In this document: piece by piece, positions 55,124 to 64,000 of the stretch
Layout of the letters: the number at the start of each line of letters is the position of its first letter
How positions within the stretch are numbered: position 1 is the stretch's first letter
Source of the DNA: Escherichia coli
Lineage (GTDB): Bacteria; Pseudomonadota; Gammaproteobacteria; Enterobacterales; Enterobacteriaceae
Length of the DNA: 64,000 nucleotides
Direction: 5' to 3' (one strand)
NCBI RefSeq assembly: GCF_045037415.1
Contig: NZ_CP173438.1
Program-made: the position numbers and the translations under genes
Notes under the pieces: generated by a model
Database searches by the model: none
Seen by the model: only the letters and a program-made list of their open reading frames with translations
Told to the model about the DNA's origin: nothing

Positions 55124-55886
55124 TTACTTACCAGAGGCGATACGATCACGGATGTGTTGCGCACGCTCTGTTGATGGTGGGTGAGAATCAAACATGGACT
55201 GGGTGTGACCGCCATCCAGGCTAGCGAGTTTTTCAAAGCTACCAACCAGCCCCTGGGTACTGATGCCACGTTTCTTCAACAGATCAAAGGAGAAATCATC
55301 TGCTTCTGACTCTTTATCACGGGAGTATTTAGCATTGATAGCGCCTTCTGCGATATCACCCAATTGTGAGCGGGAAAGCTGGGAAGCCACACCGCTGGTA
55401 GCTGAAATGGCATCGCGTGCGGCCACGATCGCATAAGAAGCTTTCATTTCAGCCAGCGAGTGACCCAACGCGACGTGGCCCAGTTCATGGCCCAGAACGC
55501 CTTCAATTTCGTTGTCGTTCATCATGTCCATCAGGCCACTGTAGACACGAACACAACCGTTCGCCATCGCCCATGCGTTGACGTCGCTGGTCATATAAAC
55601 CTTATAGTTGACTGGCGTGCCATTAATATTGTTACCCAATGCTTTGGCGATTTTTGCCAGACGTTTCCCGTACTTGCTGGATTTGCTTGCCACTTTATTG
55701 CCGCTGTCCATTTCGACACAGCCCTGATTGGCGATTGCTTTAGCATCAGCATCGCTTAATGTTGCGGCTTTATAAGCATTCAGACCTGAGCTGATAGCCA
55801 AATCGGTATTAATACCGTGCGTATTCTGACATCCTGTCAGTAAGGCTGCAGAGGTCGCAATCGCCAGCAATAATTTAGTATTCTTC
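55124..55886 (-). pseudogene. ycaL: Zn-metalloprotease lipoprotein YcaL: coding body intact but native ATG start and RBS displaced at the prophage junction
   Basis: In-frame codons for KNTKLLLAIATSAALLTGC (lipobox) and HELGH zinc motif are present, but the codon where Met1 is expected reads CAG, an in-frame TAA lies 16 codons upstream, and the first usable start is a TTG at codon 7 with no SD. Confidence 0.55.
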
Positions 55887-55961
<75 letters not shown>

Positions 55962-55962
55962 T

Positions 55963-56040
<78 letters not shown>

Positions 56041-56049
56041 TTGCAGATA

Positions 56050-56439
56050 TTACTCTTTTTTCTCCGTATCTGCATCGGGTTCATCAGCAAATAGCTTGCC
56101 CTGCATCCGATCCAGTTCTTCTTTTCTTACCCGCTTAACCACGCTGTAGACCCACTGAAGCGAAACACCAAATTTGCGGGCCAGTTCGTGGTGGTTGCGT
56201 CCGTTAAACTCCCTGAAGATTTCCCGGTCGCGCTGACTGACCTTCCATACCATGCCCATCGGGAAATAAACGTTTTGCCCGCCCCAGACCTGCATCATTC
56301 GGTTCGCGACGGCCTGACCAATCTGGTCGGCAACTTCGGGCTCAATATCAATAATCTCGCGAACGGTCTCAGAGGTATGCTGTGCCAGTTCCACCAGGAG
56401 TTCCGGCCCCTTACTTCGAAACTGATTCAGGTCGCTCAT
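56050..56439 (-). CDS. mor: Mor/C-family transcriptional activator (Mu middle-operon regulator homologue), 129 aa
   Basis: Same length as Mu Mor; motifs GGQNVYFP and REFNGRNHHELARKFGVSLQWVYSVVKRVR parallel the Mor HTH region as recalled. Confidence 0.75.
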   Translation of the reverse strand: MSDLNQFRSKGPELLVELAQHTSETVREIIDIEPEVADQIGQAVANRMMQVWGGQNVYFPMGMVWKVSQRDREIFREFNGRNHHELARKFGVSLQWVYSVVKRVRKEELDRMQGKLFADEPDADTEKKE

Positions 56440-56860
56440 GTTTGACTCCCGCAGCTCTGCGCTGCCACTTCTTCAGTTTCTCAATAACACTGCTTGCCTG
56501 TTCAGTACTGAGCCAGCGCAGGGCGCTGATGCCCGTTTCCCGCTTGATCCACCTCGCTAATGCATTTTCTGAACGGTCACGAACAATGCCGGCAGCAGCC
56601 ATTTCAAGCCATAGCGCACGAATTTTCCTGGACTGCGGATGGTTATCAAGCGGTAAACCGGAGCTGGCTTTTCTGGCTGGTTTAACGCGAAAGCCTTTCT
56701 TTTTCATGGATTCCAGCACGCAGTTTAGTTGTGTGGTATCCATTCCTTTGGTTGAGGCTTTACCGGTCAGCCCCTGTAACATCTGGCGGTAGGTGTCTTC
56801 ATCCATACCCAGTTCATTACGGGCAATATGGATAAGCTGTATCAGGCGTTTTTTCTGCAT
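56411..56860 (-). CDS. GemA-like protein (Mu gp16 / DUF1018 family), 149 aa
   Basis: N-terminal LIQLIHIARNELGMDEDTYRQMLQGLTGKASTKGM resembles Mu GemA/gp16 as recalled; sits immediately upstream of mor as in Mu. Confidence 0.55.
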   Translation of the reverse strand: MQKKRLIQLIHIARNELGMDEDTYRQMLQGLTGKASTKGMDTTQLNCVLESMKKKGFRVKPARKASSGLPLDNHPQSRKIRALWLEMAAAGIVRDRSENALARWIKRETGISALRWLSTEQASSVIEKLKKWQRRAAGVKHERPESVSK

Positions 56861-56861
56861 A

Positions 56862-57068
56862 TCATCTCCTTTTTTTCAGTCTGTCGGCAACAATGTCGGT
56901 TGCAGCTGGCAGGGTGACTGGCCAGAACAACATGACGGCGGTCATGTACAGGATGTAATGCGCGGTGTCGTAGTGCCTGCCATAGCCCAGGGAACGATGA
57001 AGTCTTGCGCTGCATGATCCTGCGTACATATACCAGAAAAGAAAACAGACAATGGTTTCAGTAGTCAT
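56862..57068 (-). CDS. Small hydrophobic protein, about 68 aa (start at internal Met of track ORF 56862..57224)
   Basis: MTTETIVCFLFWYMYAGSCSA... predicted TM segments; packed between neighbouring genes. Confidence 0.3.
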   Translation of the reverse strand: MTTETIVCFLFWYMYAGSCSARLHRSLGYGRHYDTAHYILYMTAVMLFWPVTLPAATDIVADRLKKRR

Positions 57069-57288
57069 TCTGAATACCTCCCCATTCGATATGAATATTA
57101 CGGGCAGCAATGACAGGGTCGTTATTCCACCATGCACCTGACATGTATTTTTCAACCTGTTCGCGTCCGGCAATAACACCAATTGTGATCCCCGGCCTGA
57201 CGTTCTTAAAAAAGGCGCGGGCAAAAAGGTATCTGGCAGATATTCGGCAGGCTTTTAATTTCCGGCTTTTACCTGATAGCGTAATCAT
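57058..57288 (-). CDS. Hypothetical phage protein, 76 aa
   Basis: Start overlaps the stop of the upstream gene (coupled arrangement); no recognisable motif. Confidence 0.35.
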   Translation of the reverse strand: MITLSGKSRKLKACRISARYLFARAFFKNVRPGITIGVIAGREQVEKYMSGAWWNNDPVIAARNIHIEWGGIQNDY

Positions 57289-57968
57289 CTGGCCTCCAGT
57301 TTCTGTTGTTCCTGCCCACTGACCGGGCGGTGCAGTCTGACGTTCTGCCCTTCACGAAACCCCGCATAGCGCGAGGCGTCGCCATTGCGGCTTCTTCCCG
57401 GTTTACGCGCCCTGGTGGTTTGCGTCTGCGGGTATTTATGTTCCAGCCACTGCTGCATCAGTTCACGCTCATCATCGGTCAGGGCAAAGGACTGTATTTC
57501 ACTGATAACGGCCAGCACCCAGCCTTCGGCAAACTGGTCTCCACGGCTGGTGCGGGTGGCGGTTTTTATTCTTTTGTTCTGTGCACTGATATACTGCTGA
57601 CGCGCCTTTTTCAGCTGACGGGCCAGCACTTCCCAGGTGTATGCAGCCAGTGCCGCACGTTCCCGGTTGCCGTAGAACCCCACAGACGGATGCGTGCCGG
57701 GGTGAATGATGGAGTTAACACCAAATACCTCGCGGATGATGTTCATCAGGCCCAGCATGTAGCGCGGTGGACGGAGACTGCCTGTCGGCCAGTAGTGACT
57801 GATGGTTTCATCAATATCACTCATAGCAATGTCGGAATGTGTGATGCCGTGAACATCCATCAGTTTACGGGCTCGGCGCAGTGCCAGAGCGGCCTCGTGC
57901 GGGTTGCCGGATGCGGCCAGCGCCAGCAACTTTTTCAGTTTCTCAATGTGTTTATTCTGGTCTGTCAT
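57285..57968 (-). CDS. Hypothetical phage protein with DUF2786-like N-terminal motif, about 227 aa
   Basis: KHIEKLKKLLALAASGNPHEAALALRRARKLMDVHGI motif; start placed at the second Met to avoid a 40-nt overlap (track ORF 57285..58004). Confidence 0.45.
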   Translation of the reverse strand: MTDQNKHIEKLKKLLALAASGNPHEAALALRRARKLMDVHGITHSDIAMSDIDETISHYWPTGSLRPPRYMLGLMNIIREVFGVNSIIHPGTHPSVGFYGNRERAALAAYTWEVLARQLKKARQQYISAQNKRIKTATRTSRGDQFAEGWVLAVISEIQSFALTDDERELMQQWLEHKYPQTQTTRARKPGRSRNGDASRYAGFREGQNVRLHRPVSGQEQQKLEAR

Positions 57969-58180
57969 TGTTCTGTATCTCCGGTATTTTTCTGCCGTTT
58001 CCATGCCCGGACAGCGTCGGACAGCTCTTTCAGGCTGTATGCTGCTTTAAGCTTTTCCCATAACCACTGTGTTGTTATGTGCATCAGCAGGGCAGCCAGG
58101 GCTGCCCCCGCACTGAGGCATGTCGCCAGGCCAGTAAGAATCAGTGTCCATGCGGTGATTTCCCTGAGTATGTCAGCCAT
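57965..58180 (-). CDS. Small membrane protein, 71 aa
   Basis: Single predicted TM helix (WTLILTGLATCLSAGAALAALLM) followed by a charged tail. Confidence 0.4.
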   Translation of the reverse strand: MADILREITAWTLILTGLATCLSAGAALAALLMHITTQWLWEKLKAAYSLKELSDAVRAWKRQKNTGDTEQ

Positions 58181-58194
58181 TGAATGCCTCCCGG

Positions 58195-58491
58195 TTACTC
58201 GTTCGTGTAAATCACGCCCAGTCGTGCAGCCAGACGTTCCAGTTTTTTCTGTTTGTGGAAGTCAATCAGCCGGTCCATCCCCTGAAGGCGCAGTTGCTCT
58301 GTCATGATTTCCACGTCTGCCAGCTCTGCCGCGAGGTCACTTTCGCTGCCCTGTCCGTTCAGGTTGCGGGCGGCACTGGCCGCCAGTTCAGCGGCCTCTT
58401 CTGCCAGTTTCAGGGCCTGTGCGTCCGGCCCGAAACGCTGCAGGGCCAGACGGTAGAGGGCGGTGCGGGTGAGTTCGGTGTTTCGTGTCAT
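58195..58491 (-). CDS. MazG-like nucleotide pyrophosphohydrolase-domain protein, 98 aa
   Basis: EEAAELAA...AAELADVEIM pattern typical of the small all-alpha MazG/HisE fold. Confidence 0.5.
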   Translation of the reverse strand: MTRNTELTRTALYRLALQRFGPDAQALKLAEEAAELAASAARNLNGQGSESDLAAELADVEIMTEQLRLQGMDRLIDFHKQKKLERLAARLGVIYTNE

Positions 58492-58500
58492 GCCGCGCCC

Positions 58501-58773
58501 TCAGTGCTTCCGGCTGACGGTGATGTGCAGGCCGCCTTCTGCAGTGGTTTCCATCCGGTACGGCACCTCATGCTCTGCCGTGTGGGTGAGTGTGTTCATC
58601 AGTACCTGCAGGGCAGCCTCCTTTCCGTTGGTCGCCACAATGGCCTGTGTGGCCATGCTGATTAGCGCCGTCAGGACGTGCTTCACATCGGTGAGGTCGC
58701 GGCATTCACACTCGTTGACATAGTGTTCAACAAGGGTTCGGGTGCGCTGTCGTGCTTCCTGTGGGGTAATCAT
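58501..58773 (-). CDS. Hypothetical phage protein, 90 aa
   Basis: ORF in operon context, coupled to the downstream gene; no motif recognised. Confidence 0.4.
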   Translation of the reverse strand: MITPQEARQRTRTLVEHYVNECECRDLTDVKHVLTALISMATQAIVATNGKEAALQVLMNTLTHTAEHEVPYRMETTAEGGLHITVSRKH

Positions 58774-58964
58774 TGCGAGTCCTCCCTGTCAGGGCGGGAG
58801 AATTCCATGACGGGCACGTCTGCCGAAAAATGCTGGCTGCAGTACGGGCAGACCAGGGTGACGCGTACCGCAGGGATGTGGTATTTACCGGACATCACGG
58901 CGATGGCGCTGTGAAAACGCAGGGCTGTTATATCCCTCTCGCACTGAATACATTTAAATATCAT
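58770..58964 (-). CDS. Small zinc-ribbon protein, 64 aa
   Basis: CxxC (CIQC) ... CxxC (CPYC) pairs. Confidence 0.45.
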   Translation of the reverse strand: MIFKCIQCERDITALRFHSAIAVMSGKYHIPAVRVTLVCPYCSQHFSADVPVMEFSRPDREDSQ

Positions 58965-59061
58965 GATTTAATTCTCCTCTGTTTCCGGCGTGCAGAAGCC
59001 CGCGGCGCTGACGTCGGAATAAAAAAGAAAATGTTTTTATTAAATAATTAACGTGGTGTGT

Positions 59062-59592
59062 TTACTGCACATCCTGCTCAAAAGGAATTATTGAAAAATC
59101 CTCAATGTCGCTTTTAATGGAAATACCGGGAATATTTTTCACGGCCTCTTTTTCATTCAGGATAGCGTCTTTATTTATTTCCTCTTTTACACGAATAAAG
59201 CGCTCAAGCCCCAGACGTCTCAGTAATTCAATAACATTATCCGCCCCACGGATACTGACTGATGGCGGACGGTTTCGCCACTGCACCTCGCCGGTGGTGA
59301 GGTTAGCGAACTTCACCTTCCCGTTGCCGGTCAGTTCATCACGGTGTGCCTCACACCATGTCTGAATACCGGACTGCAGTTCGGCCATGCGTTTTTTCAG
59401 GCTCTCGGTGAGCGGGGCATAACGTGCGGTGATATCGCCAATGGCGTCATTCATTTCTGTTTCAGCCCTGACCAGTTCACGTTGTGCGTCACCGAGTAGT
59501 CTGATTCCCTCAATGACCTCTTCACGTGTCCCCGGCACCCAGAGTGCTGCTGCGGCCTTGATACGTTTTGCACCTTTTGTACTTTTTGCCAT
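59062..59592 (-). CDS. gam: Gam-like host-nuclease inhibitor / DNA-end binding protein (Mu Gam family), 176 aa
   Basis: MAKSTKGAKRIKAAAALWVP...TEMNDAIGDIT...WCEAHRDELT...VSIRGADNVIELLRRLGLERFIRVKEEINKDAIL...FSIIPFEQD closely parallels Mu Gam as recalled. Confidence 0.85.
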   Translation of the reverse strand: MAKSTKGAKRIKAAAALWVPGTREEVIEGIRLLGDAQRELVRAETEMNDAIGDITARYAPLTESLKKRMAELQSGIQTWCEAHRDELTGNGKVKFANLTTGEVQWRNRPPSVSIRGADNVIELLRRLGLERFIRVKEEINKDAILNEKEAVKNIPGISIKSDIEDFSIIPFEQDVQ

Positions 59593-59619
59593 TTTTTATG
59601 ATTTCTCCAGTTGTGCTGA

Positions 59620-59889
59620 TTACCACAAAGATTCCGGCCACACGACGCGACAGCCGTGCAGTTCGAAAACGCCCTGACGGAAATATCCCCTGTGGTCATG
59701 TCCGGTATACAGATAACAGGCCTTTCCCTGCTCAAGCATGCGCATGCAATGCGCACTCCGGGAAACGCGGATGACAGGTTTGTTACCCCTGATGGTGATG
59801 CTTTGTACATCCGTGTTCGTCGCCTTAAGCGCCATAATGGCTGACTGCACTTTGCTGATTTGCTGGTTGATACCTGTGGTGGATTTCAT
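59620..59889 (-). CDS. Hypothetical phage protein, 89 aa
   Basis: ORF between the MuB-like gene and gam, where Mu carries kil; no motif recognised. Confidence 0.4.
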   Translation of the reverse strand: MKSTTGINQQISKVQSAIMALKATNTDVQSITIRGNKPVIRVSRSAHCMRMLEQGKACYLYTGHDHRGYFRQGVFELHGCRVVWPESLW

Positions 59890-59891
59890 TA

Positions 59892-61097
59892 TTAAACCCC
59901 TTTGACAACGTCAGCGTTGACCTGTGGAACCCCGATTTCAGCGGCCAGATTCATGGCGGCTATTACCAGGTTACTGACGGCCAGCGGATACAGCAGGCTG
60001 ACCATATTTTTACGGTGACTTCCCGGATTGCTCAGGCGGGCACGTATGGCATCCACTGCACCGGCGTCCATAATGTCCGTCAGCTGTTTACCGGCCCGTT
60101 GCAGTTTGAACGTCAGAAATTCTTCAAGGTTATTGTCCAGAGGCAGAAGTTCGACCACCTCACAGCGCTGAACGACTTCACGGACTTCCATATTGCGTTC
60201 AGACAGTTTTGTCGCCAGTTCCGGCTGGCCAATCAGCACGATGGACAGCAGTTTTTTGAAACCGGACTCCAGCTCAAAAAAGCGTTTGAGGTGTTTCAGT
60301 GTCGGAATGGGCAGACTGTGGGCCTCCTCAATCACCAGAACGTGGCTGAACCCCGCCTGGCTGCTGTCTTTCAGGACGCGATGCAACTGGCGAAAACGGG
60401 CGTCCTGACTGCGTCTGATGCTTTCCAGTGGTGCGATGGTACTGATAATGGCTTCGGCAATAGCTGCTGCCTTCAGGGTTTTCCCTTTCACATCGTTGTC
60501 TTCCATAGCGATGATGTATGGCTCGATAACAATTACCGGCGCATTCTCGCGGTTGATACGTTCAGTCAGGTCGCGGCGCAGCGTGGATTTACCCGCACCG
60601 GACTCACCGATGACGGCCATAAACCCACCATGACGGGCTGTCTGGTACAGCGCCTCACGCACGTAGCGAATGTCCGGGGTGGTGAACACATCATCAGAAC
60701 CCTGCATGGCTTCGTCGGCGAACGGGTCACGGAAAAGACCAAACGCTTTTTTGGTTGCTGGAAATAACACCTGTTTTTTGAGTAACATATTCTCTTCCTC
60801 ACTGAGGCTCGTTTTATCTGTGGTACCCGCTGTACGGGGCGTGGCCGCGCCCTGTACAGCATCAAAACTCTTCGTTGTATCAATCCCCTGACTTTCCAGC
60901 CAGGACGCAAGACGCCGGCGCACTTCTCCGGGGCTGGTGCGGGGCCACGCGTTATGATTCACAATCTGGGCCAGCGTGGCCTCAGAAACATCGACAGCTC
61001 TCGCCACCACCGCCTGTGGAATACGGGCCTCTTTCAGTTGCTGCTTCAGTACCAGCATGTTTCCCTCCTCAGTTGCCGTTAACAATGCTGATAACAC
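59892..61097 (-). CDS. MuB-like transposition ATPase (N-terminal HTH plus AAA+), up to 401 aa
   Basis: Walker A GESGAGKST, N-terminal Xre-like HTH (AVVARAVDVSEATLAQIV); immediately downstream of the transposase; start uncertain (the Met at 61058 would remove the overlap with the transposase gene). Confidence 0.8.
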   Translation of the reverse strand: MLSALLTATEEGNMLVLKQQLKEARIPQAVVARAVDVSEATLAQIVNHNAWPRTSPGEVRRRLASWLESQGIDTTKSFDAVQGAATPRTAGTTDKTSLSEEENMLLKKQVLFPATKKAFGLFRDPFADEAMQGSDDVFTTPDIRYVREALYQTARHGGFMAVIGESGAGKSTLRRDLTERINRENAPVIVIEPYIIAMEDNDVKGKTLKAAAIAEAIISTIAPLESIRRSQDARFRQLHRVLKDSSQAGFSHVLVIEEAHSLPIPTLKHLKRFFELESGFKKLLSIVLIGQPELATKLSERNMEVREVVQRCEVVELLPLDNNLEEFLTFKLQRAGKQLTDIMDAGAVDAIRARLSNPGSHRKNMVSLLYPLAVSNLVIAAMNLAAEIGVPQVNADVVKGV

Positions 61098-62838
61098 TGC
61101 TGCGGGCCGGTGTGGTCAGCGTGGCCATGACTTCATCCAGTGCGGCTTCCGGTACGCCGTCCGGGTACTGTGCCGTTAACTGGCGGTAATGTTCCGGCGT
61201 CCAGGTAAGGCCGTCGGCGCTGAACTTATCGCGCAGGGCTTTCGCGGCCTCCACATGAGTCATGGGACGTTGTTCAGTGCGCGGCCCGCGTACGTCAGAG
61301 GCCTGACCACGCTTCGGCATATAGGCCGGAAGTGTGGTGTCGTCGATATGTTTATACGGGTCAAGCCGCCCGCCGAACGGCAGCGCCTTCGCCTTGCGTG
61401 CGGCGGCTGCATCTGCGGCGTTGTCTGTACCGGTAACCAGCGCTTCGGTTTCTTTTGCCGCCATCTGTGCCGGGGTTTCCGGCAGGGCTTTGTAACTTTC
61501 GCCAAATACCGCCGCGCCTTCAGCAAAGCCAAACTCGTTCTTTCTGACCTCTTCGACCAGGAAGAACGTCTCGTGGCCGTCCTCACCGGTCAGAACCACC
61601 TGTGCCACATCGCTGCGCCATGGGTTACGGGTAATCATCAGTTTTTCACCAACCAGTACGCCCGGTACCGTTGATACGTCAAATTCAGTGCCCCGGAACG
61701 AGACACGAAGTTTTGGCGTGACTTTGCGGAGTTCTGGTGCCGCCACAGCCAGTTCACGACATACCTCAACGGAAGGCGCTTTTTTCAGCTGCTCAGCAGT
61801 AATCTTCAGCCAGATATCCGTGCGGGTTTTACCGTGGCGGCTGTGAACAGCCGTGGCGTTAAAGTGGCTGCGCCATTTCGCGGCCAGCGCGTTGAGTTCT
61901 TCCAGACTGTGAACCGGCCGGAACTTCAGACCCGGCTCCAGCTTGCGTTCGATAATGTCACGCGCCTTTTCCACCTGTCCGGTGGCGCGGGCGTTATGCG
62001 GCTTGTGCGCTATCAGGTCGATGCCCAGTGAGCGGCACATGTTTTTCGTCATACCCGCGGTGTTTGCCGAGCCGGGGTCGAGATAGAGTATTTTCGGCAC
62101 GCCGTGCAGCACGTCTGCGCCGCCACGCTCCTGCATGGCGTTGATAAGCACAGAACACAGGTTCTCACCTGATTCCGCGCCCGTCACATACTCAACGTAA
62201 ATCCAGCCGCTGGCATGGTCGGTAATCTCGTAACTCCACACGCGGTCACTGGCGATACGGGCAAGGTTAGCGGGCTTGTTCTTGTAGAACTTCGCGCTGT
62301 CCATCACCTGCAGCCCTTTATGTCCATTGCTCAGGTAGTAAAGCGTGCAGAGTGAGGCGTCAATCTGCCAGACATGATTGGGATGCAGACTGGCCACTTC
62401 GGTATGTGGTGCAGGGGCATCCAGTTGTTCCGGGTGCAGGCCATAGTTACGCAGAGCACGGCTGATGGCATCTTCAGACAACGGGAAAAACTCACTGGTG
62501 GTTTCATCTGTTCTGCCTGCGGTGATAAAGCCGTTAGCCCGCAGGGTTTCCACTGCATCTGCGATGGAATAGAGACGCTTACCGTTCTTGCGGGTGGCCT
62601 CACGCAGTGTGGCAGATATCAGCGCGGCTTCGTCGCGGGTCAGGGCGCTGCGCCCGGCATCGGCGCGTTTTTTGCGTTTATCAGTCACAGATACCTCCTT
62701 CAGCCTGCGCAGCAGAGTGGCGCGGGACATGCCAAGTTCAGCACAGGCAGCGTCGTATATTGCACCGCGTTTACCATGCCCCGCGTCACGTGCCGCGCGG
62801 GCTGTTTCAACCAGTTTTTCAGTCAGTGCCGGGGTCAT
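61069..62838 (-). CDS. DDE (rve/Mu-type) transposase, 589 aa
   Basis: N-terminal HTH; catalytic core with VWQIDAS ... YLDPGSANT ... ATGQVE arrangement. Confidence 0.85.
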   Translation of the reverse strand: MTPALTEKLVETARAARDAGHGKRGAIYDAACAELGMSRATLLRRLKEVSVTDKRKKRADAGRSALTRDEAALISATLREATRKNGKRLYSIADAVETLRANGFITAGRTDETTSEFFPLSEDAISRALRNYGLHPEQLDAPAPHTEVASLHPNHVWQIDASLCTLYYLSNGHKGLQVMDSAKFYKNKPANLARIASDRVWSYEITDHASGWIYVEYVTGAESGENLCSVLINAMQERGGADVLHGVPKILYLDPGSANTAGMTKNMCRSLGIDLIAHKPHNARATGQVEKARDIIERKLEPGLKFRPVHSLEELNALAAKWRSHFNATAVHSRHGKTRTDIWLKITAEQLKKAPSVEVCRELAVAAPELRKVTPKLRVSFRGTEFDVSTVPGVLVGEKLMITRNPWRSDVAQVVLTGEDGHETFFLVEEVRKNEFGFAEGAAVFGESYKALPETPAQMAAKETEALVTGTDNAADAAAARKAKALPFGGRLDPYKHIDDTTLPAYMPKRGQASDVRGPRTEQRPMTHVEAAKALRDKFSADGLTWTPEHYRQLTAQYPDGVPEAALDEVMATLTTPARSSVISIVNGN

Positions 62839-62853
62839 AGCTTGTCTTCCCTG

Positions 62854-63171
62854 TTATCCGATTCTGGCGGCAATTTTTCTGGCGAGGTCGCACAGTGTTT
62901 CGCCATCGCAGGTTTTCACCACGGTATTTACCGGTTGCGGTGCAACTACCGGGCGTAATGCTGACTGATTCTGCAGACGTCTTATCTGCTGCATCAGCAT
63001 CACCTCCATCGTCAGTACAAACGGGTGCGTCTCCTGTGCGGGTACGCAGATTTCACCGGAAGGGGTCACCACGCGGAAACCCTGCACCATCTCCGGCAGC
63101 AGATTACACAGTGCGTGCCCCAGTGCCTCCGGGCTGTCCATCAGGGTATTTTGTGTGTTATTCGTATTCAT
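62854..63171 (-). CDS. Hypothetical phage protein, 105 aa
   Basis: ORF immediately upstream of the transposase; start overlaps the stop of the upstream gene. Confidence 0.4.
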   Translation of the reverse strand: MNTNNTQNTLMDSPEALGHALCNLLPEMVQGFRVVTPSGEICVPAQETHPFVLTMEVMLMQQIRRLQNQSALRPVVAPQPVNTVVKTCDGETLCDLARKIAARIG

Positions 63172-64000
63172 TACTGCATATCCTCCGGTCGGTTGATTTC
63201 AGGTTCCGGTTCGGTCAGCCAGGCGGGGGCATCGTTACCCGATGGAGCGGCCTCAAGGTCAAACGTCTCACGTAATGCATGAACACTGCGTTCAATCTGG
63301 CAGACCAGACCGGCCATGAAATCTCTGGGGGTATCGATCATGTTTTTGGTGCAGTATTCACACAGGGTCTCAAAAACACTGGACAGCCGGACGGCGATAG
63401 CCGATTCGGCCTCAACCGCTAATGCCGTCACTTCCGCCCGCAATTTTTTCAGTTCTTCGTCTGGCGGCGGAGGTTGCAGGCGCGATTTCTTCTCCAGTTT
63501 TGTGGCCAGTTCGTTGATTTTTTCGTCCTTTCCGGCAAGCACCTGTTGCTGAGCTGCGTTGGTTTCGCGCGCTTCACGCAGGGCGGCCTTCAGTTCGCGG
63601 CTGGTCATGCGATCAATATCATCAAGCGTTGCACCGGCGACGGTTCCACCATCAGCTAATGCGTCGAGTTCTTCGTCATCCAGAACCATCAGTTCATATA
63701 ACTTGGTTTTTCCCAAAACGCTCAGCGCTGAGCGTTTTGGCTGTTCATCTCCATTGCCGAGAAATTTCACGCTGGCCTGCATCATGCGACGAGCTACCTG
63801 TGGTGCTAATCCGAGGTCGTTTTCCAGAATATTTGTGAAATCACCATGCGGTTCATTTTCTTTTAAGATGATCAGCCGCTTACCCGCTTCCAACATAGAT
63901 TCAGCACTCTGCGCCATATAAAAACGTGCTTCGTGAACGATGCGTTCACGTTCATAAGGCAGTCCATCACCAAACTGCTGCATGATCTCCATGCGATGCT
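63171..64000 (-). CDS. Hypothetical phage protein, at least 273 aa, probably 5'-truncated by the window edge
   Basis: Long ORF with coiled-coil-like C-terminal half; reading frame stays open to position 64000. Confidence 0.45.
   Translation of the reverse strand, partial: HRMEIMQQFGDGLPYERERIVHEARFYMAQSAESMLEAGKRLIILKENEPHGDFTNILENDLGLAPQVARRMMQASVKFLGNGDEQPKRSALSVLGKTKLYELMVLDDEELDALADGGTVAGATLDDIDRMTSRELKAALREARETNAAQQQVLAGKDEKINELATKLEKKSRLQPPPPDEELKKLRAEVTALAVEAESAIAVRLSSVFETLCEYCTKNMIDTPRDFMAGLVCQIERSVHALRETFDLEAAPSGNDAPAWLTEPEPEINRPEDMQ

Follow-up and report, generated by a model that had tools for sequence, protein, structure and literature searches.

A putative MazG-like pyrophosphohydrolase gene in the early operon of a BcepMu-like prophage of Escherichia coli

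What does a protein of only 98 residues, encoded among the accessory early genes of a transposable prophage, do for the phage that carries it? The question is raised by a gene at 58195..58491 (minus strand) of a 64,000-nucleotide stretch of Escherichia coli DNA (contig NZ_CP173438.1, assembly GCF_045037415.1), which is called the window below. The gene is part of the early operon in a BcepMu-like transposable prophage that has inserted next to the host gene ycaL. In our view its product is quite probably a single-domain, all-alpha member of the MazG-like nucleoside triphosphate (NTP) pyrophosphohydrolases, with a role in the deoxynucleoside triphosphate (dNTP) pool of the phage as the most likely one.

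The gene, its family and its predicted fold

The open reading frame (ORF) begins with ATG, encodes 98 amino acids and ends with TAA, and RefSeq annotation calls the same coding sequence. A preliminary description of this DNA had given its position and the pattern EEAAELAA...AAELADVEIM; both are exact, the two halves of the pattern occupying residues 31-38 and 54-63 of the translation. The ribosome-binding site overlaps the TGA (58501-58503) of the preceding gene on the same strand, and the next gene on that strand starts 14 bp past the stop codon, preceded by GGGAGG. Against 20 homologues from viral contigs, the ratio of non-synonymous to synonymous substitution rates (dN/dS) is 0.06-0.24, synonymous sites being near saturation for copies that are 70-75% identical. 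Because of the ORF with its ribosome-binding site and this low ratio, the gene is a real protein-coding gene under purifying selection. An antisense ORF of 161 residues (58180-58665, plus strand) spans the gene and its upstream neighbour; since both overlapped minus-strand genes are conserved and under selection, it is regarded as a by-product of G+C-rich coding sequence. The features of the gene are as follows.

58195..58491, minus strand: gene of 98 residues, MazG type (all-alpha NTP pyrophosphohydrolase superfamily), identical to RefSeq WP_001295929.1
58498..58502, minus strand: Shine-Dalgarno sequence GAGGG, 6 nt 5´ of the ATG
58387..58401, minus strand: codons of E31-E32-A-A-E35, the first predicted metal-binding motif (EExxE), from sequence and conservation
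58315..58326, minus strand: codons of E56-L-A-D59, the second predicted metal-binding motif (ExxD), 20 residues after E35, from sequence and conservation
58234..58254, minus strand: codons of K80-Q-K-K83-L-E-R86, basic residues of the last helix (K80 kept in 136, K83 in 167 and R86 in 159 of about 178 homologous domains)

The family to which the protein belongs is large and coherent. It matches PHROG 2245, an uncurated model named 'nucleoside triphosphate pyrophosphohydrolase', at E=5.5e-34. A HMMER search of 1.84 billion representatives gave 1625 representative clusters at E<=1e-3, mostly of 85-110 residues. The consensus of 71 homologues reads Y..A...WG...Q.....EE..EL......G.......AEEIADVEIM.EQ.R......K..KL.RL..RL, and the Pfam MazG model PF03819 is matched by 27 of these 71 at E<=0.1 and by three at the stricter E<=1e-3; the phosphoribosyl-ATP pyrophosphohydrolase (PRA-PH) model is matched by only 9.

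Residue conservation was read from 191 aligned homologous domains of 35-50% identity, with about 184 non-gap residues per position. The acidic motif of the protein, E32xxE35 followed after a 20-residue gap by E56xxD59, is nearly invariant: E31 is kept in 183 of 184 domains, E32 in 178 of 184, E35 in 176 of 185, E56 in 176 of 183 and D59 in 179 of 184 (95-99%). G21, Q25, A58, Q66, K83 and R86 are near-invariant as well, and K80, K83 and R86 are candidates for binding the triphosphate. The superfamily of MazG, HisE and dimeric-dUTPase-type enzymes is reportedly defined, by Moroz et al. in 2005 and by CDD entry cd11523, through the metal-binding signature ExxE-(12-28)-ExxD; the spacing seen here agrees with it. 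The subfamily also has conserved polar residues of its own, Q25 (182 of 184), E61 (149), E65 (140) and Q66 (177 of 179), and the signature ADVEIMxEQ; a third metal or base recognition is a possible purpose of these residues.

When the family profile was compared with PDB sequences, 5ie9, 2q5z, 2q73 and 2gta were found at E values of 0.025-0.15, matches that are weak but coherent. In the alignment with 5ie9, a Bacillus MazG, EEMGE and EELGD are the counterparts of the EExxE and ExxD motifs. The top profile match by E value (4.5e-4) was 3zta, a STAS/RsbR-type stressosome N-terminal domain. We treated it as probably a chance helical similarity, because the acidic motif is missing there, E31 being aligned with N and E35 with A. 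The stretch that 3zta does share with the family is ...EIAD.V.IM..Q.

Some relatives depart from the single-domain form. P0050, P0061 and P0089 contain two domains in tandem, and the first copy in P0050 has lost EExxE (it reads AIRHLSKL); they resemble the two-domain E. coli MazG, in which one domain is degenerate. Three enterobacterial proteins of 166-169 residues, about 70% identical (P0012, P0031 and P0036), have a C-terminal extension of about 70 residues with the stretch LPxRELLEDWCGAVPNSAFIGA, which the protein studied here does not carry; the extension could be a fused downstream gene. In a homologue on a viral contig (L059:5001-5273), K replaces E56 (GKLADVEIM); inactivation of this copy or an error in sequencing may explain the change.

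The fold was modelled by AlphaFold2 from the 71-sequence alignment. The model (predicted local distance difference test score, pLDDT, 96.3; predicted template modelling score, pTM, 0.81) consists of two long helices, 9-44 and 50-91, which bears out the earlier statement that the protein is all-alpha. In Foldseek searches of the PDB the leading matches were DCTPP1, iMazG, 1vmg, HISN2, 5ie9 and RS21-C6, all of the same superfamily; HisIE, iMazG, a Thermotoga MazG-related protein, RS21-C6 and E. coli MazG were also among the structural matches, the best being a MazG. In AFDB50, a long series of entries bearing the name 'NTP pyrophosphohydrolase MazG putative catalytic core domain-containing protein' comes after the close orthologues, with TM scores of 0.75-0.85, a root-mean-square deviation (rmsd) of 1.2-2 Å, 30-38% identity and E values of 1e-4 to 1e-3. 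Two copies of the protein joined by a 30-residue Gly-Ser linker were predicted with a pTM of 0.81 and a pLDDT of 96-98 in both copies, a model that fits the obligate dimer of single-domain MazG proteins. Five AFDB50 neighbours of about 90-105 residues (A0A661Q2K1, A0A2N6EVX1, A0A661VFH8, A0A550JLR0 and A0A2N6DYX9) carry the automatic name 'Antitoxin', which may hint that some small MazG-like proteins occur in toxin-antitoxin-like pairs.

The preliminary description had proposed a MazG-like NTP pyrophosphohydrolase with a MazG/HisE fold and had named that fold and the catalytic acidic residues as the features on which the proposal depends. Both are found, the fold in the AFDB50 matches to MazG cores and in PHROG 2245, the residues in the five near-invariant acidic positions. 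The identification is thereby supported.

The prophage early operon and its distribution

The gene lies in a compact series of genes on one strand. A DDE transposase, an ATPase like ExeA and MuB, a 270-bp gene, Gam and two small genes precede it; a 216-bp gene, a DUF2786 gene, two small genes, gp16/GemA and Mor follow, and then the host genes ycaL, cmk and rpsA. The Bcepmuvirus Escherichia phage PhiKM has a 100% identical gene, labelled hypothetical. Given this identical copy and the annotated order from transposase, MuB and Gam to GemA and Mor, the earlier placement of the gene in a prophage early operon is correct. The neighbouring features are listed below.

61069..62838, minus strand: DDE transposase (MuA analogue), start of the replicative-transposition module (RefSeq and GenBank annotation)
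59892..61058, minus strand: MuB-like, ExeA-family AAA+ ATPase (RefSeq annotation, ORF)
59062..59592, minus strand: Mu Gam-like host-nuclease inhibitor (phrog_491, E=5.5e-73; RefSeq name)
58501..58773, minus strand: upstream early-operon gene of 90 residues, function unknown (phrog_3691)
57965..58180, minus strand: downstream early-operon gene of 71 residues, function unknown, with a hydrophobic segment (phrog_3958)
56411..56860, minus strand: gp16/GemA family protein (annotation)
56050..56439, minus strand: Mor-family late-transcription activator, last prophage gene before host ycaL (annotation)
55124-55906: host ycaL

The Mor end of the prophage segment (56050-64000) abuts ycaL, with the junction at 55907-56049. 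The early genes of unknown function by PHROG, all on the minus strand, are the two listed above (57965-58180 and 58501-58773) together with 56862-57068, 57058-57288, 57285-57968, 58770-58964 and 59620-59889; one of them is the DUF2786 gene. If the prophage has host-takeover or anti-defence genes, these would be among the seven. PADLOC gave zero matches for the gene under study and these seven early-operon neighbours. A scan of 55800-64000 for promoters and terminators found nothing above shuffled expectation and is neutral on a single early transcript.

Among 5426 complete E. coli genomes the gene is present in 620, and its location is chromosomal in every case. The 8.9 kb surrounding it are 100% identical to several complete E. 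coli genomes; in other genomes of the species an insertion breaks up this region, namely IS1, ISEc23, or ISEcp1 together with blaCTX-M-15. The protein shares 96% identity with an AlphaFold DB entry from O25b:H4. Outside the species, a 73%-identical copy was found in the Klebsiella record KP12 clone KP12_2 (OM835952.1). There too it lies between Gam and GemA, and the flanking small genes differ. This record is filed under Vequintavirinae and holds a BcepMu-like transposase-MuB-Gam-...-Mor segment, suggesting that the KP12_2 'clone' is a co-assembled transposable prophage or phage and not part of KP12.

The identification itself is already known. The family is labelled in PHROGs, and newer RefSeq annotations give WP_001295929.1 the name 'nucleoside triphosphate pyrophosphohydrolase family protein', where older ones have 'hypothetical protein'; small MazG-type phage genes are commonplace. 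In the literature on MazG in BcepMu or Mu-like phages we found no study of this gene, and the MazG of the PUA-Cal-HAD preprint is a defence effector, not a phage gene.

Possible functions of the protein

From what holds in the MazG family, a mechanism can be proposed. Two of the helical hairpins would pair into a four-helix-bundle dimer, in which E32, E35, E56 and D59, together with E31, would hold Mg2+, and K80, K83 and R86 on the last helix would hold the triphosphate. The enzyme would then cleave the alpha-beta bond of a (d)NTP, giving the monophosphate and pyrophosphate. The position of the gene in the early operon, with the transposition-replication proteins, suggests by analogy with Mu-type regulation that it would be silent in the lysogen and made together with these proteins only on induction or infection.

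The likeliest job of such an enzyme, to which we give about an even chance, would be to take non-canonical or unwanted dNTPs out of the pool that feeds phage DNA synthesis, and so to clean this pool or restore its balance. Distant homologues in unrelated viral contigs are found in replication and recombination modules:

L075: family member between a primase-helicase and an HNH-DNA polymerase gene
L068: family member after a primase gene
L077: family member after a Holliday-junction resolvase gene
L080: family member after an ERCC4 nuclease gene
L073: family member near a PAPS-reductase-like gene
L078: family member near a terminase gene

We also count in favour of this role that the gene keeps its position between Gam and GemA in the Klebsiella relative despite the differing small neighbours. 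A precedent is the cyanophage MazG, which prefers dGTP and dCTP and is inactive on (p)ppGpp (PMC6850273).

Several results weigh against the assignment and the role proposed here. Searched alone, the protein has as its best Pfam match PRA-PH (PF01503, E=0.029), with MazG PF03819 unlisted, and as its best NCBIfam match TIGR03188, a hisI/hisE model, at 14.6 bits against a cut-off of 42.7. Since both sets of models are sub-significant for the protein itself, it is, judged by its sequence, a divergent MazG-like subfamily. A single-sequence search of PDB sequences gave nothing meaningful; matches to IWS1 and to designed repeats were rejected as helical low-complexity noise. The Foldseek matches in the PDB are weak (E>=0.18) and have large rmsd. 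The association with replication modules comes from a handful of loci, with PHROG annotation and simple ORF calling. A further point of this kind is the phage enzyme Atd1, on which the strongest alternative is built.

In this alternative, which takes up the host-takeover or counter-defence function proposed in the preliminary description, the protein is a MazG-type counter-defence or alarmone hydrolase, whose substrate would be (p)ppGpp, a defence second messenger or an NAD-derived signal, and which would sustain the activity of the host or weaken abortive infection. Atd1, which has a MazG-like catalytic domain, hydrolyses ppGpp, for which its Km is about 50 uM, and confers protection from TIR-STING and retron-TIR (bioRxiv 10.1101/2022.06.09.495361). 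The gene studied here is surrounded by small genes of unknown function in the accessory portion of the early operon, and early expression would suit counter-defence. On the other hand, its relation to phrog_1992 and phrog_715, the phage 'MazG-like pyrophosphatase' families, is faint (E=0.004 and 0.026) and covers one helix only, and among the 5 GenBank phage records that it matches at E<=0.01 by tblastn, PcCB7V, the phage of Atd1, does not appear. None of its neighbours in the operon is annotated as a nucleotidyltransferase, methyltransferase or anti-defence gene, and PADLOC found no match among them. The distant homologues lie in replication modules, and the cyanophage enzyme cited above cannot hydrolyse (p)ppGpp. 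(A Dam methylase gene lies about 7 kb from the gene, outside the early operon.) We therefore favour the role in the dNTP pool over counter-defence, because of the setting of the distant homologues and because neither a special relation to Atd1 nor a nucleotidyltransferase neighbour nor a PADLOC match was detected, and we consider counter-defence unlikely. Equally doubtful is its wider form, in which the whole subfamily marked by Q25, E61, E65 and Q66 would serve specifically to hydrolyse (p)ppGpp or a nucleotide immune signal, keeping the host permissive in BcepMu-like and many unrelated phages.

A second alternative, which we hold to be very improbable, is a helical hairpin that has the MazG-like shape and no catalysis, and that acts by protein binding as a regulator, inhibitor or antitoxin-like partner. 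The 'Antitoxin' names among the structural neighbours and the sub-threshold scores of curated models would agree with it. It is opposed by the five near-invariant acidic positions with exact MazG spacing and the conserved basic residues of the last helix, kept over about 190 domains of 35-50% identity; a metal and phosphate site typically shows such a pattern, a binding surface does not. Also against it are the tandem-duplicated relatives, which resemble the two-domain MazG enzymes in that one of their copies is degenerate.

That the protein might be a HisE-type phosphoribosyl-ATP pyrophosphohydrolase of histidine biosynthesis can practically be dismissed: PRA-PH and hisI models are its best curated matches, but their scores (15.2 and 14.6 bits, the latter against a cut-off of 42.7; E=0.029) are far below the cut-offs, MazG prevails over PRA-PH among the homologues by 27 to 9, the best structural match is a MazG, and the gene belongs to the early operon of a prophage rather than to a his operon.

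As a sequence finding, the MazG-type gene adds nothing beyond existing annotation; its value is that of a candidate for biochemical and genetic test. Few 'auxiliary' phage genes are as common as those of small MazG-type enzymes, whose substrates have been established in only a few cases (dGTP and dCTP in the cyanophage case, ppGpp for Atd1). The present gene is a convenient model for what such enzymes do for a temperate phage, because it is widespread in E. coli, belongs to a neatly organised early operon in a transposable phage of inducible type, and has an identical copy in the isolated phage PhiKM. Were the counter-defence reading true, about 11% of complete E. coli genomes, O25b:H4 strains among them, would carry an Atd1-like enzyme.

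Comparison with known MazG-type systems

Atd1 of Pectobacterium phage PcCB7V resembles the protein described here in being encoded by a phage, in having one MazG catalytic domain that bears two acidic motifs, and in the accessory role proposed for it early in infection. It differs in that it is found beside phage nucleotidyltransferase genes and hydrolyses ppGpp, whereas the early-operon neighbours of our gene include no annotated nucleotidyltransferase. No close sequence relation between the two was detected, as judged only by the absence of PcCB7V from the tblastn matches.

The MazG of cyanophage S-PM2 (PMC6850273) and that of S-2L (PDB 7ody) are phage enzymes of the MazG type that have dNTPs as substrates and shape the pool for phage DNA synthesis. 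Among the Foldseek PDB matches of our protein, 7ody ranks 39. Both S-PM2 and S-2L are lytic cyanophages, and their MazG proteins belong to subfamilies different from ours. The S-2L enzyme serves a base-replacement pathway; unlike in S-2L, no such pathway is apparent in the prophage of the window.

E. coli MazG (3cra) has two tandem domains in 263 residues (the matched chain has 239), and mammalian DCTPP1/RS21-C6 (7mu5, 2oig, 2a3q) is a tetramer specific for dCTP; in comparison with both, the prophage protein is a minimal single domain. The tandem arrangement occurs only in some of its relatives, the P0050, P0061 and P0089 mentioned above.

Among the closest known systems are also the single-domain MazGs of Sulfolobus solfataricus (1vmg), the Vibrio integron (iMazG, 2q5z/2q73), Bacillus (5ie9) and B. 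subtilis (YpjD, 2gta), which are likewise all-helical and of about 90-115 residues. Their EExxE and ExxD motifs align with those of the prophage protein, while the overall sequence relation is marginal, as the profile E values given above indicate. In contrast to them, its subfamily has a signature of its own (WG..xQ...EE..EL ... ADVEIMxEQ ... K..KL.RL) with the extra residues Q25, E61, E65 and Q66, and it is phage-borne, whereas the single-domain MazGs compared here are chromosomal or integron-borne.
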